Of a stretch of DNA of 64,000 nt, positions 44,359-63,276 are shown in pieces (the stretch's first letter is position 1; each line of letters starts with the position of its first letter). The stretch is from NCBI GenBank assembly GCA_021513695.1, contig CP084166.1, positions 224,001 to 288,000 on the forward strand, read 5' to 3'. The translations under genes were made by a program, and so were the position numbers. This DNA comes from Candidatus Heimdallarchaeum aukensis (GTDB lineage: Archaea > Asgardarchaeota > Heimdallarchaeia > Heimdallarchaeales > Heimdallarchaeaceae). The notes beneath the pieces are model-generated. The model had not been told where the DNA came from. It made no database searches and saw only the letters and a program-made list of their open reading frames with translations.

Positions 44359-45690
44359 ATGAGTATAAGTGTAAATGTAAGTGAAGCCTTTGGCAAAGTA
44401 ATCCAACCCACGTGGCTCACTGAAGACGAAGAAGATTTTGAAGCGGTGAGCCACAATTTCCAATCACCAGAAACTTATTATTCTTCTGTTTTATTGAGTG
44501 AACCTTTGGGATCATACATTAGTACATATGATGCCCAAAAAATATTATCAAAGGGATTAAGAAAAAATTCTTGGATAAAGGCTTATTATACAAATAAAGA
44601 ATTATTGAGAGAAAAATATATTTTAGATTTTGTAGATTTAATTGTAGCATCAATAGATGAAAATTTCAACTCATCAATTATTGAAGATGCAGTTTATTTG
44701 TTTAAGCTTAACCTTCCAAACTTTCTAGCTTCTTTTCAAGAAAACTATTTCACAAGTAACTTAGTAGCAATGTATTTCCTTGCATTGTTAGATCATAAAT
44801 TACAGCAAGTTGGAGGAAAATTAACAGCAAAAGACATCGAAATAATTTATTCTCTACCTAAAATTACGCCAAATGCTTTTTCTTTTTATAATATCAAAAA
44901 AATTCAAAATGACCTTTATTCGAGAGGAATATTAAAGAGAAAAAGGAGAACAGACTTTTATGAGCCATTGAGGGCGAGAATCAAGGATATATTAGGTTTA
45001 CTAGTAAAAAATTTTCCTGAATTAAATAAAAAGTTAGATGATTTGGAGCAAATTGTCTTTGATTTAATTAATATGCGTAAAGTACCAGGAACTAATTACA
45101 AAGATGCAGCAGTAATAATGATAATGAGTGTTGCAACTAATCTTTTTGAACTAAGGTATAGAAATAATTTCTGGTCACTTCTAAGTAAAGAATATGCATT
45201 TGAAAAAGAAAAAATGTTAAAATCTGTATATAGATTTAGAAGTAGGTTAAAGGAAGTAGAATTAAATAAACTAATTTTGAAATCCTACGCTCCAAAAAAA
45301 GAACAAGAAAAAGAAGAAAAGAAAGAAAAAACAATTTCTACTTTCGAAATAAAAAAAGCTATATACTTGTTTAGCGATAAAATAATGGATAAATTCTCAA
45401 GATTAGAGAAGGATCTACTAATAGTCGAACAGCAAGCCTATAGATTAATTGATAAAAATATTCATGCAAATTTGGATGTAGATAAATACACACTTCCTGT
45501 TCTTCTATTTCAAAGTCTTATCCCGAAATTAAACATCGCTGAATATGAGAAAGAGAGACTACTAGAATTTCTTAGCAAATTTATGAAAAAAAATGAACAG
45601 ATACTAAATCGTCTGAAGAAAAGAATAGAGTTAGAAGAAATTTCAAATAAGAAAAAAGAAAAAATGATTAAGGTGGGGGAGTTTGAGTAA
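44359..45690 (+). CDS. TFB/TFIIB-core-like (cyclin-fold) protein without Zn ribbon, tentative; first gene of the long + strand cluster
   Basis: It is a paralog of 36858..37595. PGTNYKDAAVIMIMSVA and KSVYRFRSRLKEV resemble cyclin-repeat features of TFB. GGGTGA lies 7 nt upstream of the ATG. Confidence 0.35.
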   Translation: MSISVNVSEAFGKVIQPTWLTEDEEDFEAVSHNFQSPETYYSSVLLSEPLGSYISTYDAQKILSKGLRKNSWIKAYYTNKELLREKYILDFVDLIVASIDENFNSSIIEDAVYLFKLNLPNFLASFQENYFTSNLVAMYFLALLDHKLQQVGGKLTAKDIEIIYSLPKITPNAFSFYNIKKIQNDLYSRGILKRKRRTDFYEPLRARIKDILGLLVKNFPELNKKLDDLEQIVFDLINMRKVPGTNYKDAAVIMIMSVATNLFELRYRNNFWSLLSKEYAFEKEKMLKSVYRFRSRLKEVELNKLILKSYAPKKEQEKEEKKEKTISTFEIKKAIYLFSDKIMDKFSRLEKDLLIVEQQAYRLIDKNIHANLDVDKYTLPVLLFQSLIPKLNIAEYEKERLLEFLSKFMKKNEQILNRLKKRIELEEISNKKKEKMIKVGEFE

Positions 45691-46423
45691 TTTTTTCACT
45701 TTTATTTGGGAAACCGTGGTGGCAATTTTTACAGGAACAGCATCACTTAGTTTCTTTGTAATTTTAGTAATCTTGTTCCTACGCTTTCTAGTTGATGCTT
45801 TTATTCCAAGTAAGCTACAGATGTTATTGAATATCCTTTTTTTCCCAGGATCATTTATGCATCAAGTTATACAGACAATTGCAGTAAGAGCTTGTGGATA
45901 TGATGTTAAAGTAAATTTTCATATGGCTTTTGATCGAGATTATGCAAGTCAAAGCATAAAAGGAGATTTAACTCATGTTTCTCATGCAGCTTTTATTGGC
46001 TTAAGTCCTTTTTTGAATATAGGATTGGTTGTAGCAATATTGAAATTTAGTGATGATATATCAGGAATTTTCTTGAAATTTGGTATGCCTTTTATGGGAA
46101 CTTTCTTGAAAATTTATTTGTTATTGTGTTTTGCATTTTTTTCAATTCCTGATGTACAAGATCTAATGTTACCTTTTTACACTTTGACGGTAGCTTATTC
46201 AGAATTTATTGCCCTTTTAATGGTCAGTTTACTTTTCTTTGTCTTTGCTGTTGGAGTTTGGGGATGGCTTATTCCTTCAATTAACTTTCTACTCTTTGTA
46301 GTCTTTGTTTTATATTTGGTTAAAAAAAGACAAGATTCTAACTACAAAGCTGGTAATCTACAACCTATTAAACGAAAACAAAGTCAAAATGAGGGAGATG
46401 AAATATTGCTTTTGGAGGTTTAA
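45683..46423 (+). CDS. polytopic membrane protein (paralog of 54274..54909)
   Basis: 246 aa. It overlaps the upstream gene by 8 nt. It shares an FSIP[DN]xx[DE]L motif with 54274..54909. FMHQVIQTIAVRACGYDVKV resembles an M50/S2P HExxH helix in which the E and the second H are replaced. Confidence 0.5.
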   Translation: MSNFFTFIWETVVAIFTGTASLSFFVILVILFLRFLVDAFIPSKLQMLLNILFFPGSFMHQVIQTIAVRACGYDVKVNFHMAFDRDYASQSIKGDLTHVSHAAFIGLSPFLNIGLVVAILKFSDDISGIFLKFGMPFMGTFLKIYLLLCFAFFSIPDVQDLMLPFYTLTVAYSEFIALLMVSLLFFVFAVGVWGWLIPSINFLLFVVFVLYLVKKRQDSNYKAGNLQPIKRKQSQNEGDEILLLEV

Positions 46424-46425
46424 AA

Positions 46426-61404: not shown

Positions 61405-61412
61405 TTTATAAA
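61405..61412 (+). promoter_or_regulatory. archaeal TATA box TTTATAAA
   Basis: It ends 29 nt upstream of the ATG at 61441. This favours ATG 61441 over the track's TTG at 61432. Confidence 0.35.
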
Positions 61413-61431
61413 TTATTTCTTTTATTATCAT

Positions 61432-63276
61432 TTGAAGCTGATGAAAAGAGATAATTTCCTACTTACATTTTTAATTTTAATTATAGTATGTACAATTTTA
61501 CTTATTCCGCTTTATTTTACTGAAGCTCACTATTTAGAACAAGAGGAAGAAAAAAAGCAAATAAAAAATGAGCTTCAATCTACTATCCTTATTCCTCATG
61601 ATATTGTCTTTAATTTCACAGATAAACTTTCTAAATACACTTACTCTTTTGTTCAGAATCTTACATTAAGTGGATTATATGGTTTAGAAATTCTGTTTAA
61701 AACTGGTGGGAGTTTAGCTTTAAGTGATACCTTAAAAGTAAAGATAGTTATGGAGGATAGAATAAATATCAGCTTCACAATAGATAAATTATTTCAAGAC
61801 TCCAATATTCATTCTTTAACAAAAAGTCTTTATTGTGAAAATATTGGAGAAGAAGCAAAGATAACAATATATTTTGAAGGACAATGTTTCATTGGAAAAG
61901 AGGGTAATCTAACTCTTTTCAAAACTATTAATCTTTATTCTTATGATATTCTATCTTTAAAAACAGAAAAAATTATTAGTCCTGACGTTATCCCTCATTC
62001 TATCTCTTTTTCAGGGAATTCTTTCTCCAAAAAGACTTTTTCTGTAAAATCATTTTTTAATGTAGAAAATACAAACATCACAAAAATTAAGTTAAATTTT
62101 ACATTTAATACAAATGATTTTGTTTCACTAGAAAGAAAAATAACTTTTCAGATAGGTTCAAACCTTACAGAAAAGGATTTTAGTTCAGGATTAAACACAA
62201 TTTTATTGTCATTAGATTGTGGAAGTGATCTAAATATTTTGAATATCTCTTTTACAGTAGGTTATAGCTCTGATATCATACATTTAGAGGATTTTAGTTT
62301 AAGTATTGAAGTAGAGAAAGAAGAAGAAACAAGTAAAGAAAGAGAAATTCTTGAATTTAAAGAATGGGAAGGAGATAAGATAGATTTAACTTTTGACATC
62401 TCAATTCTAAAAAATGAGCAGAGTTCTAAGGAGTTAATAATAAACTTAAATCTTAGTTGTGGTTTTGAAGGTGCAACTGTAACTCCTTACATTGAATTTA
62501 GAATTATTTCTGGAATATATACTATTTATACAGGAAAAGTAATGAGTTATGAACAAAGCGAAGAAGAGTTAATAAAAATAAATACTTATACCTACACTTA
62601 CAATAAACCTCTATTAGTTAACTTTTACGCTAAATTAGAAAATAGTGGGAAAGGACAGATCTTTATTTACAATTCTTCTAATCTTACTGCTTCAAAAATC
62701 CCACAAATGTCTTCTAAAGGTTTATTTAGGGAAGTAGAATCAGAGAAAAACGTCTACACTCCTCAACTAGGTGCAGTCATCCTAAATTACTACGATGTCT
62801 TTTTCAATGATTATTCATTAACAATAGATTATGTTTTTAATTTGACTTTTACCCTTTTCACAGATTATGATGAAGTTTTTGATAGAATAAATGTTGGAAT
62901 AACAATAGGCGTAAATACTTCAATAAATAAGATTTTTAGTAAACCTGGTAAGATCTCAATTACTGAAGACGTTAAAATCTATCAAGGATATAACGAGGTT
63001 AAAATCAAGTTAACAATTTATGGTTCAGGAACCTATGTCTCTCTCAGAAATATAACTTATAGACTTAATCCGATTAAAGATTTTTCTTTTCAAGATGAAA
63101 ATCAAACAATTAGTTCGGTAAATATTCCCTTGATAAAACCCCCTTATACAATAAGTTTAGGAATAAGTTCGATTTTAGGTCAATGGGTAATTGGAGGAGT
63201 ATTCGCTAGAGTGTTTAACAGTAGCAAAAAGAAAAATAAACTCTCTAAAAATATGAAATATAAGTTAGAGTTTTAA
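61432..63276 (+). CDS. beta-rich surface protein with N- and C-terminal hydrophobic anchors
   Basis: N-terminal TM/signal FLLTFLILIIVCTILLIPLYF, many NxS/T sequons, and a C-terminal ISLGISSILGQWVIGGVFARVF followed by a basic tail. Confidence 0.6.
   Translation: MKLMKRDNFLLTFLILIIVCTILLIPLYFTEAHYLEQEEEKKQIKNELQSTILIPHDIVFNFTDKLSKYTYSFVQNLTLSGLYGLEILFKTGGSLALSDTLKVKIVMEDRINISFTIDKLFQDSNIHSLTKSLYCENIGEEAKITIYFEGQCFIGKEGNLTLFKTINLYSYDILSLKTEKIISPDVIPHSISFSGNSFSKKTFSVKSFFNVENTNITKIKLNFTFNTNDFVSLERKITFQIGSNLTEKDFSSGLNTILLSLDCGSDLNILNISFTVGYSSDIIHLEDFSLSIEVEKEEETSKEREILEFKEWEGDKIDLTFDISILKNEQSSKELIINLNLSCGFEGATVTPYIEFRIISGIYTIYTGKVMSYEQSEEELIKINTYTYTYNKPLLVNFYAKLENSGKGQIFIYNSSNLTASKIPQMSSKGLFREVESEKNVYTPQLGAVILNYYDVFFNDYSLTIDYVFNLTFTLFTDYDEVFDRINVGITIGVNTSINKIFSKPGKISITEDVKIYQGYNEVKIKLTIYGSGTYVSLRNITYRLNPIKDFSFQDENQTISSVNIPLIKPPYTISLGISSILGQWVIGGVFARVFNSSKKKNKLSKNMKYKLEF

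Follow-up and report, generated by a model that had tools for sequence, protein, structure and literature searches.

Introduction

Among described systems, those most similar to the locus reported here are the Ups/Ced/Ted systems of the Thermoproteota, HerA-NurA together with Mre11-Rad50, the Hel308/HELQ helicases with their RAD51 paralogs, PINA-Hjm-Hjc of the Sulfolobales, the Hachiman defence system and the bacterial competence machinery (ComEC/ComFA/DprA/RecA). Here we analyse a gene cluster in a 64,000-nucleotide (nt) window of Candidatus Heimdallarchaeum aukensis (contig CP084166.1 of assembly GCA_021513695.1, positions 224,001-288,000, forward strand; coordinates below are those of this window). 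The cluster is chromosomal and conserved across Heimdallarchaeia. It comprises a membrane and surface module (G10, G4, G5 and G3) and a DNA-recombination module (G6, G7, G8, G9 and RadA), with Hef and XPD as recurrent neighbours. Its tightest junction joins the membrane protein G5 to the Rad51-paralog ATPase G6, and the recombinase gene radA is joined to G3, the gene of a giant surface protein. We favour the reading that these genes encode a multi-gene, Heimdallarchaeia-specific, chromosomal apparatus for DNA recombination or exchange that is anchored in the envelope; the function is suggested by genomic context, and we put the probability of this reading at roughly 0.38.

No known archaea are more closely related to eukaryotes than the Heimdallarchaeia, and we know of no account of the mode in which they exchange and recombine DNA. 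In the control of eukaryotic recombination, HELQ-like helicases work jointly with SWIM proteins and Rad51 paralogs; in Shu complexes (SWS1/Shu2), it is through the SWIM finger that Rad51 paralogs are bound. HELQ binds the RAD51-paralog complex BCDX2 (PMC13623763). In the Sulfolobales, the ATPase, the Hel308-type helicase and the small PD-(D/E)xK nuclease of PINA-Hjm-Hjc act jointly on recombination intermediates (PMC6061704).

Comparison with described systems

An initial annotation of this DNA had held that no described operon has such a composition. We likewise found no match to it in PADLOC, PHROGs, Pfam, NCBIfam or the PDB, and no description of the cluster in the literature on Asgard repair, Ced and Heimdallarchaeum. 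Matches to PHROGs were generic helicase and ATPase matches only, and those to PADLOC likewise reflected generic helicase and ATPase similarity, in agreement with the earlier statement that the cluster is no known defence system. Because each of the named systems differs from the cluster in at least one defining feature and no literature description was found, we regard the cluster as categorically new in composition, with soluble proteins that are divergent members of known superfamilies.

The exclusion of a type IV pilus and of Ced/Ted by the initial annotation agrees with our Pfam and NCBIfam searches, which gave no match to a type IV secretion system (T4SS) or a pilin; no sequence-level match to a T4SS, Ced or pilin family was found with which to equate the cluster with the Ups/Ced/Ted systems. 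In contrast to VirB4/CedB of T4SS and Ced, G8 lacks transmembrane (TM) segments and its P-loop is non-canonical, no VirB6/CedA homolog was found, and PDB sequence-profile searches returned no relatives of G5 or G4. Ced lacks a Rad51 paralog, a PD-(D/E)xK nuclease, a Hel308-type helicase and RadA, whereas the cluster has all four. Nor is the cluster a herA-mre11-rad50-nurA operon, as the initial annotation had also stated: no NurA, Mre11 or Rad50 domain occurs in any cluster protein, and the cluster has membrane partners. Compared with HerA-NurA, G8 has GDKK[TI]R in the place of Walker A and carries two additions, a winged helix and a helical tail of 350 amino acids (aa), and the cluster nuclease, G7, has a DUF1052-like PD-(D/E)xK fold rather than being a NurA.

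The likeness to Hel308/HELQ with RAD51 paralogs lies in G9, which carries Hel308 motifs and stands in one operon with a Rad51 paralog, and the likeness to SWS1/Shu2 lies in its SWIM finger. However, G9 scores far under the Hel308 equivalog cutoffs, its SWIM finger is fused into the C-terminal half of the helicase and, unlike in HELQ-BCDX2, the Rad51 paralog is coupled to a membrane protein. With PINA-Hjm-Hjc the cluster shares the combination of ATPase, Hel308-type helicase and small PD-(D/E)xK protein, but it lacks PIN and KH domains, and the membrane module is not part of PINA-Hjm-Hjc. Hachiman shares a Ski2-like helicase and a PD-(D/E)xK protein with the cluster, and the PADLOC HamB models match G9; the cluster, however, lacks DUF1837/HamA, has at least five additional conserved partners, is absent from viral contigs and is core chromosomal, with one locus per assembly in the lineages recovered. 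The resemblance to bacterial competence (a membrane component, a superfamily 2 helicase-like motor, nuclease activity, a recombinase loader and a recombinase) is a functional analogy only, and no homology to competence proteins was found with Pfam and NCBIfam.

Conservation of the cluster across Heimdallarchaeia

A scan of one genome per archaeal species yielded 26 loci, all from Heimdallarchaeota. Further loci came from contigs encoding homologs and from a metagenome scan, and genes were annotated by BLASTP and family hidden Markov models (HMMs). About 35 loci from other Heimdallarchaeota were obtained, with a G8 homolog of 33-45% identity. Within the main clade (33-40% identity for G8; 24-38% for G10, G4 and G5), the order G10-G4-G5-G6-G7-G8-G9 was found in every locus long enough to show it, despite identities of 24-45%, and was followed 3' of G9 by 0-2 variable genes, RadA and a G3-like giant gene with immunoglobulin (Ig) repeats. 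In most species G10 heads the operon and the giant Ig gene stands after RadA: G10 orthologs (24-35% identity) directly precede G4 in at least 13 loci, G4 orthologs (26-38%) always lie immediately 5' of G5, and G3 orthologs (31-34%) lie 3' of RadA in seven species. The window, Ca. H. endolithica (L012) and a sister lineage at 59% G7 identity (L042) carry the same genes in the permuted order RadA ... G3-G4-G5-G6-G7-G8-G9-G10. The closest complete genome is that of Ca. Heimdallarchaeum endolithica PR6, in which the N-terminal region of G8 is 86% identical. The cluster was present in every lineage recovered and at a single locus per assembly in the loci recovered; scans of 2.9 million viral contigs with the G8 and G7 profiles found no relatives.

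G5 and G6 overlap by 8-26 nt in 20 of 20 loci (20 nt in the window) and G7 and G8 mostly by 7-32 nt, as called from the first start codon after a stop, a procedure that can exaggerate overlaps; the gene calls of the source records give the same overlaps. The distance from G8 to G9 is -8 to +13 nt save in one locus (-50), with a gap of 12 nt in the window, that from G4 to G5 is about 0 nt (9 nt in the window), that from G6 to G7 about 55 nt and that from G10 to G4 27-56 nt. In seven of seven loci, G3 follows RadA after 1-14 nt and begins directly at its signal peptide. This arrangement suggests that the housekeeping gene radA is co-transcribed with the gene of a giant envelope protein. Pairs of radA with an Ig-repeat gene of >1800 aa were seen in L013 (9008-15586) and L014 (17290-22115), and also in L023, L024, L026, L031, L032 and L047.

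Co-direction of the genes is weak evidence, because nearly all genes from 36 kb to the end of the window are on the plus strand; it is comparative conservation that places the cluster beyond chance. The initial annotation had let its reading stand or fall with co-conservation in related Asgard genomes, where we found the envelope and recombination-type genes kept together; its interpretation is supported in part. The ten genes that it had drawn as the unit need redrawing: g1 has no counterpart, g2 is rare, and RadA and the Hef-like gene upstream belong to the recurrent neighbourhood. The main-clade flanking families U1-U4 and U7 have no homolog anywhere in the 64-kb window; between the two clades, the cluster itself was retained and not general synteny.

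One of these flanking families, U2, encodes a membrane protein of ~400-430 aa with a polytopic N-terminal and a soluble C-terminal half and without a Pfam match; it lies divergently from G10 in L014, L016, L021, L028, L031, L032, L035 and L036 and has no counterpart in the window. Two loci depart from the main-clade order. L017 carries one extra ORF (open reading frame) between G6 and G7. In L024 (16-3028), an rve-family transposase and an unrelated ORF occupy the place of G10-G4-G5-G6, while G7, G8, G9, RadA and G3 are still present; the transposase is 54% identical to the product of the window gene at 37854-38792, and the locus is possibly a natural disruption of the membrane half of the cluster. 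Directly 3' of G10, genes for a BsaWI-like restriction endonuclease and an N6/N4 methyltransferase were found in L012 (17346-19457) and L002 (10896-13007); this pair is not at that place in the window.

Gene content of the cluster

The ten plus-strand ORFs that had been drawn initially were recovered with identical coordinates, lengths and spacings; those of the cluster, its neighbours and two promoter-like motifs are given in Table 1. At the 5' end of the group, g1 and g2 overlap by 8 nt and g2 is separated from G3 by 2 nt.

Table 1. Positions of cluster genes, upstream neighbours and TATA-like motifs in the window
Feature	Coordinates	Strand	Basis
Hef-like protein, 602 aa, apparently degenerate; peripheral recurrent neighbour	39411..41219	+	
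RadA recombinase	41578..42669	+	Pfam Rad51 1.9e-51; helix-hairpin-helix N-terminus
384-aa polytopic membrane protein, lineage-specific	42753..43907	+	six predicted TMs
g1, 443-aa soluble protein, lineage-specific	44359..45690	+	
g2, 246 aa, four TMs	45683..46423	+	TM prediction
G3, 2121-aa Ig-repeat surface protein	46426..52791	+	Pfam domains, TM prediction
TATA-like TTTATAAAT, possible internal promoter, 42 nt 5' of G4 start	52807..52815	+	
G4, 471 aa, N-terminal TM hairpin, orphan family	52849..54264	+	TM prediction
G5, 211 aa, four TMs, orphan family	54274..54909	+	TM prediction
G6, RadB/Rad51-paralog-like ATPase	54890..55525	+	TIGR02237, below cutoff
G7, 156-aa PD-(D/E)xK-fold protein, putative nuclease	55586..56056	+	
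G8, 1051 aa, HerA/VirB4-fold core	56114..59269	+	
G9, Hel308/HELQ-type Ski2-like helicase with SWIM zinc finger	59282..61393	+	
TATA-like TTTATAAAT, 27 nt 5' of G10 start	61405..61413	+	
G10, 614 aa, beta-rich ectodomain, orphan family	61432..63276	+	TM prediction

The descriptions of the four envelope proteins in the initial annotation were largely borne out. G3, described as a repetitive surface protein, carries Big_1, Big_3_5 and CarboxypepD_reg repeats (Pfam) between a predicted N-terminal signal peptide and a predicted C-terminal TM. G4, described as membrane-anchored, has two predicted N-terminal TMs with a large K/E-rich soluble domain behind them, and the membrane protein G5 has four predicted TMs and a C-terminal DPF tail that is conserved in the family alignment. 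For the anchored beta-rich protein G10, TM prediction and alignment placed a TM at the N-terminus and a hydrophobic anchor at the C-terminus of a beta-rich body. Searches of Pfam, NCBIfam, PHROGs, PADLOC and PDB sequences, family profiles included, found no relatives of G4, G5 or G10; by these searches, the three are orphan families among the membrane and surface proteins. One PDB profile match of G5, to NIPA2 (E 0.0035), was set aside, as it looks like an effect of TM composition.

Two further calls at the 5' end fared differently. The polytopic nature of g2 was confirmed by TM prediction, while its supposed paralogy with G5 was not: BLASTP, HMM and hhalign comparisons were all negative, and the two have just a short 'PDxxDL'-like motif in common. 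By BLASTP, g2 matches proteins adjoining the G7 homolog in L038 and L041 (6e-10), and on this comparison it recurs only in that one distant lineage. The product of g1 had been called TFB-core-like. It matched nothing in Pfam, NCBIfam or the PDB at permissive thresholds, the cyclin-like TFIIB repeats and zinc ribbon were not found in Pfam, NCBIfam and PDB sequence searches, and we rejected the TFB identity; no homolog of g1 was found in any other locus compared. The 384-aa membrane protein upstream had no family match and no counterpart in the other loci compared. It thus appears lineage-specific, and comparison does not support its membership in the cluster. Neither it nor g2 is a counterpart of the conserved upstream family U2, for which hhalign was negative.

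Proteins of the DNA-recombination module

G6 had been described as a RadB-like P-loop ATPase. It matches TIGR02237 at 53.6 bits, under the cutoff of 172.4 bits, and is thus RadB-like without qualifying as a RadB equivalog. Its Walker A motif, GPPxSGKT, and its Walker B motif are largely kept across 26 orthologs, most orthologs have an N-terminal extension of ~150 aa, and the family HMM matches RadA at 8e-8. G6 also weakly matches KaiC-type ATPase models (PF06745, AAA_25). By these matches, it is a RecA/Rad51-superfamily paralog, closest to RadB.

The identification of G9 as a Ski2/Hel308-like helicase is supported by helicase family matches, and the SWIM finger also noted for it is a probable one, with a C-x-C-x8-C-x-H signature. 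It matches the NCBIfam Hel308-type models at 1e-38 to 1e-47, far under their cutoffs; for the Hel308 equivalogs NF040935 and NF001308 it reached 131-161 bits against cutoffs of 887-1216, and it is not an equivalog of these. The alignment to Hel308 models covers residues ~10-465 only. In the PDB, G9 matched ASCC3 (1.7e-49), Brr2 (4e-45) and Hjm (2.6e-42). The motifs APSSxGKT (I), DEFH (II) and YHHAGL (IVa) are present in 22 of 22 orthologs, the last as defined for Hel308/HELQ (F/YHHAGL) in PMC10484726, placing G9 among the Hel308/HELQ-type helicases in the broad sense. The C-terminal 300 aa are divergent and match nothing except, weakly, SWIM: the signature CxCx8CxH is kept in 22 of 22 orthologs, and PF04434 scores 16-18 bits against a gathering threshold of 19.6. 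In L042 (13675-15811) and L035 (13095-15267), two successive ORFs take the place of an intact G9 (136+562 aa and 342+380 aa, respectively), which could be a frameshift, pseudogenisation or a sequencing error.

G7 had been described as having an MmcB-like nuclease fold, MmcB-like being the current Pfam name of PF06319 (DUF1052), after a mitomycin-C resistance protein. No Pfam match to PF06319 was obtained for the nine members tested, even at E <=10. Its predicted structure, with a predicted local distance difference test (pLDDT) score of 89, has the alpha-beta-beta-beta-alpha-beta PD-(D/E)xK fold, nearest to DUF1052/PF06319 and in agreement with 3dnx, the structure of that family (PMC3424549). 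In 35 sequences, E25, D49, E64, E66 and H73-P-x-x-Y77 are invariant, and Q75 is present in nearly all. The catalytic signature would correspond to D49 and E64-x-E66, with Glu in the canonical Lys position. At most, K24, which is invariant in nine close relatives and not across the 35-sequence set, is a candidate substitute for that Lys. From its modelled fold, we regard G7 as a putative nuclease.

G8, the 1051-aa protein for which HerA likeness and a winged helix had been noted, does have a RecA-like core of HerA/VirB4 topology and a winged helix. Its layout is an N-terminal beta domain, the HerA/VirB4-fold core, the winged helix, which is MarR/PadR-like, and a helical tail of ~350 aa. In a set of 1.84 billion representatives, the family profile matched no more than 39 proteins, of which the remote ones are DUF87/HerA proteins. 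At the Walker A position, 27 of 27 orthologs have GDKK[TI]R in place of a canonical motif, and the Walker B position reads IDDAE, IDNAE or INNAE. Because both positions are non-canonical, the ATPase is probably inactive, making G8 probably an ATPase-dead HerA/VirB4-fold protein.

The Hef-like protein upstream of radA matches the NCBIfam Hef nuclease model NF010337 at 4.8e-15, far under the cutoff, and has no Pfam DEAD, Helicase_C or ERCC4 domain. Its relatives in other lineages, for example at 7358-9886 of L038, are canonical Hef, and the window protein is probably a catalytically dead Hef derivative. The initial annotation had spoken of several members that look degenerate. This stood clearly only for G8 and the upstream Hef-like protein; G6 and G9 kept their motifs.

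Deeper Asgard lineages

Other Heimdallarchaeota and an 'Asgard group archaeon' have G8 homologs of ~1100 aa and like architecture, and the P-loops of these distant homologs are all degenerate, as in G8 itself. In differing layouts, the deep lineages keep G5 with G6 and G7 with G8, and the neighbours of these pairs are Hef, XPD, a Hel308-like helicase and giant Ig proteins (counterparts are primed). In L038 and L041 the genes are a giant Ig gene, G10', G4', G5' overlapping G6', canonical Hef, G8', G7' and a g2 homolog. L040 has a tight operon of G10', G4', G5', G6', XPD and G7' beside G8' and a Hef-like helicase. L039, L043 and L053 have G7', G8', a Hel308-like helicase, Hef and XPD; an Ig-repeat protein and an Arf-family GTPase are encoded close by. 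A full Hef or a Hef-like helicase adjoins the G8 homolog in L038, L039, L040 and L041, and giant Ig genes adjoin the module in L038, L041, L042 and L043. The homology of the deep-lineage G5, G6, G7 and G8 is significant (HMM 1e-17 to 1e-37, hhalign probability 98-99%), including that of G5, for which the HMM gave 1e-21 and 6e-18 and hhalign a probability of 98.9%.

In the 'Asgard group archaeon' lineage, the Ig-repeat protein gene adjoins the gene of an Arf/Ras-family small GTPase. This GTPase gene lies on the opposite strand, two genes upstream of G7'-G8', in L039 (2150-2758) and L043 (4349-4957).

Discussion

If the cluster encodes an envelope-anchored apparatus for DNA recombination or exchange, G5 together with G4 and G10 would form a membrane platform, and the cytoplasmic DPF tail of G5 would dock G6. 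G8 may bind DNA through its winged helix and partner the G7 nuclease in the manner of HerA-NurA, acting as a non-motor scaffold. The motor would be G9, translocating 3'-5', with its SWIM finger contacting the Rad51 paralog by analogy to SWS1/Shu2 and HELQ-BCDX2. G6 would pass single-stranded DNA to RadA, the end user, and G3 and G10 may mediate cell-cell or DNA contact at the surface. Such a machine would feed DNA at or across the envelope into homologous recombination, for community repair or exchange, with a logic like that of Ups/Ced or competence. The DNA uptake or transfer that the initial annotation had put forward is likewise an inference. We consider DNA arriving at or through the envelope the best explanation because proteins with ectodomains of >550 and >2000 residues apparently share transcription units in the cluster, and the flanks outside the cluster, which are not common to the window clade and the main clade, also support the reading. 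The kept gene order and its permutation in the window clade, the tight spacing, the link re-created in deep lineages, the folds and motifs, the HELQ-BCDX2 precedent and the absence of relatives from the viral contigs scanned speak for it too. The further step to a dedicated and ancient envelope-spanning machine of four orphan membrane or surface families, the Rad51 paralog, the nuclease, a dead HerA/VirB4-fold scaffold and the HELQ-like helicase, one that couples cell-cell contact or DNA capture to RadA recombination, and thus to an exchange route unrelated to Ced or competence, is one that we consider doubtful, though worth stating.

Several observations count against an apparatus of this kind. 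No channel-like, pilin-like or secretion-ATPase family was found in Pfam, NCBIfam or PDB profile searches. G8 is the sole VirB4/HerA-fold protein, its P-loop being non-canonical and TMs lacking, and its model has a pLDDT of 52 overall, moderate in the core. Within the main clade, synteny extends beyond the cluster, with U2 upstream in eight loci; part of the conservation could therefore be inertia. For G10' and G4' of the deep lineages, equivalence to G10 and G4 is mostly a matter of position and architecture; the profile scores are weak (hhalign P of 0.002 and 0.01, compared with 0.27-0.39 for mismatched controls; HMM 3.6e-5 for L041). Moreover, Hef, XPD, RadA and Hel308-type helicases are housekeeping repair genes, and an intracellular repair hub fits their proximity equally well.

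Such a hub would be tethered to the membrane without transporting DNA: G5, G4 and G10 would anchor a complex for fork, crosslink or recombination control (G6-G9, RadA, Hef and XPD), which may, for example, process envelope-attached chromosomal DNA, with the surface domains having another or a sensing role. We think this, the main rival, rather unlikely, although it has to be taken seriously. All recurrent neighbours are intracellular repair factors (Hef/FANCM-type, XPD, Hel308/HELQ-type, Rad51 paralog and RadA), the nearest fold of G7 is DUF1052 (MmcB-like), the lack of a canonical P-loop makes G8 an unlikely translocase, and the cluster occurs in every lineage recovered at a single locus per assembly. 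For the dead P-loop and for the recurrence of Hef, XPD and RadA beside the cluster, the hub offers an explanation no worse than that of the favoured reading; yet it leaves unexplained why a Rad51 paralog and RadA itself are apparently transcribed together with proteins that have ectodomains of >550 and >2000 residues, and why the link between membrane and recombination is re-created in differing layouts. That link would be incidental if a surface and a repair operon, unrelated to each other, were adjacent only through slow genome rearrangement, and the syntenic main-clade flanks U2, U3 and U4, the spacers of ~55 nt from G6 to G7 and 27-56 nt from G10 to G4, and the TATA-like motifs before G4 and G10 speak for this. 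However, the tightest junction is the one where membrane genes give way to repair genes, G5/G6, with an overlap in 20 of 20 loci; at RadA/G3, an envelope gene and a recombination gene are closely joined a second time, independently of the first; and the association survives the permutation in the window clade and strand flips in L038, L040 and L041 while the outer flanks change, so we judge mere adjacency improbable.

A signalling role has less in its favour still and strikes us as quite improbable. The surface proteins would sense a cue or envelope damage, the KaiC/RadB-like G6 would transduce it and the winged-helix protein G8 would regulate repair genes. Membrane proteins are paired with KaiC-like ATPases in archaea, much as G5 is coupled to G6, and the weak KaiC-type matches of G6 (PF06745, AAA_25) and the MarR/PadR-like winged helix of G8, joined to a degenerate ATPase as is typical of regulatory roles, are in line with this. 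On the other hand, a nuclease and an intact helicase tightly coupled to G8 suggest direct work on DNA, and Pfam and profile searches found no sensor or kinase domains. Very improbable, finally, is the other hypothesis of the initial annotation, a defence or exclusion island derived from a mobile genetic element, for example a Hachiman-like helicase-nuclease pair with membrane sensors. PADLOC HamB models do match G9 (best 2.6e-34) and mad8 matches G8 (9.4e-9), a BsaWI-type restriction-modification pair lies 3' of G10 in Ca. H. endolithica and L002, and the DNA 6-10 kb upstream of the cluster contains transposase and TnpB-like genes. But the higher scores of G9 are those against Hel308, Brr2 and ASCC3, and it has motif IVa of Hel308; HamA is lacking, the neighbouring restriction-modification genes are variable and outside the conserved set, and the cluster, which includes RadA, lies among ordinary metabolic genes. 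As the loci recovered also numbered one for each assembly and the 2.9 million viral contigs held no relatives, we disfavour the island.

In the cluster, RadA and a giant surface protein share what appears to be an operon, and the reading frame of a Rad51 paralog overlaps a membrane-protein gene alongside a HELQ-like helicase with a SWIM finger. If its products form one machine, this would be a new kind of envelope-coupled recombination or DNA-exchange system and would offer testable candidates for the pre-eukaryotic organisation of recombination mediators (Rad51 paralogs, HELQ and SWIM proteins). Even when it is read conservatively, the cluster extends archaeal DNA repair by four orphan families of membrane proteins and by a new HerA-like family that is inactivated.

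Other features of the window

The G+C content is ~29% across the window, without a compositional break at the cluster, and no tRNA or Rfam RNA was found anywhere in the window. The internal TATA boxes proposed initially at 52807 and 61405 are present as motifs, yet TTTATAAAT is unenriched in the AT-rich window (9 occurrences against 7.7 expected), and we rejected the motifs as evidence for operon structure. An 83-aa, K-rich ORF at 41228-41479 (-), without a family match, is the sole reverse ORF of >=80 aa within the plus-strand run 38948-63276 and sits between the Hef-like gene and radA.

Contigs from four samples of the Joint Genome Institute (JGI) match the window at 99.4% identity over 46114-63263 and diverge thereafter. 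The diverging contigs (L008 17150-18991) run into a reverse-strand XPD-like helicase, as does L042, instead of which the window has a plus-strand ORF for a secreted protein from ~63477. The break, right where G10 ends, reflects a strain-level rearrangement or else an assembly join.

At 6-10 kb upstream of the cluster, the window encodes a TnpB/Cas12f-like protein at 33989-35443 (-), a small helix-turn-helix protein resembling sigma-70 region 4 at 35582-36082 (-) and an rve integrase-type transposase at 37854-38792 (+). The remainder of the window consists of ordinary chromosomal and metabolic genes.

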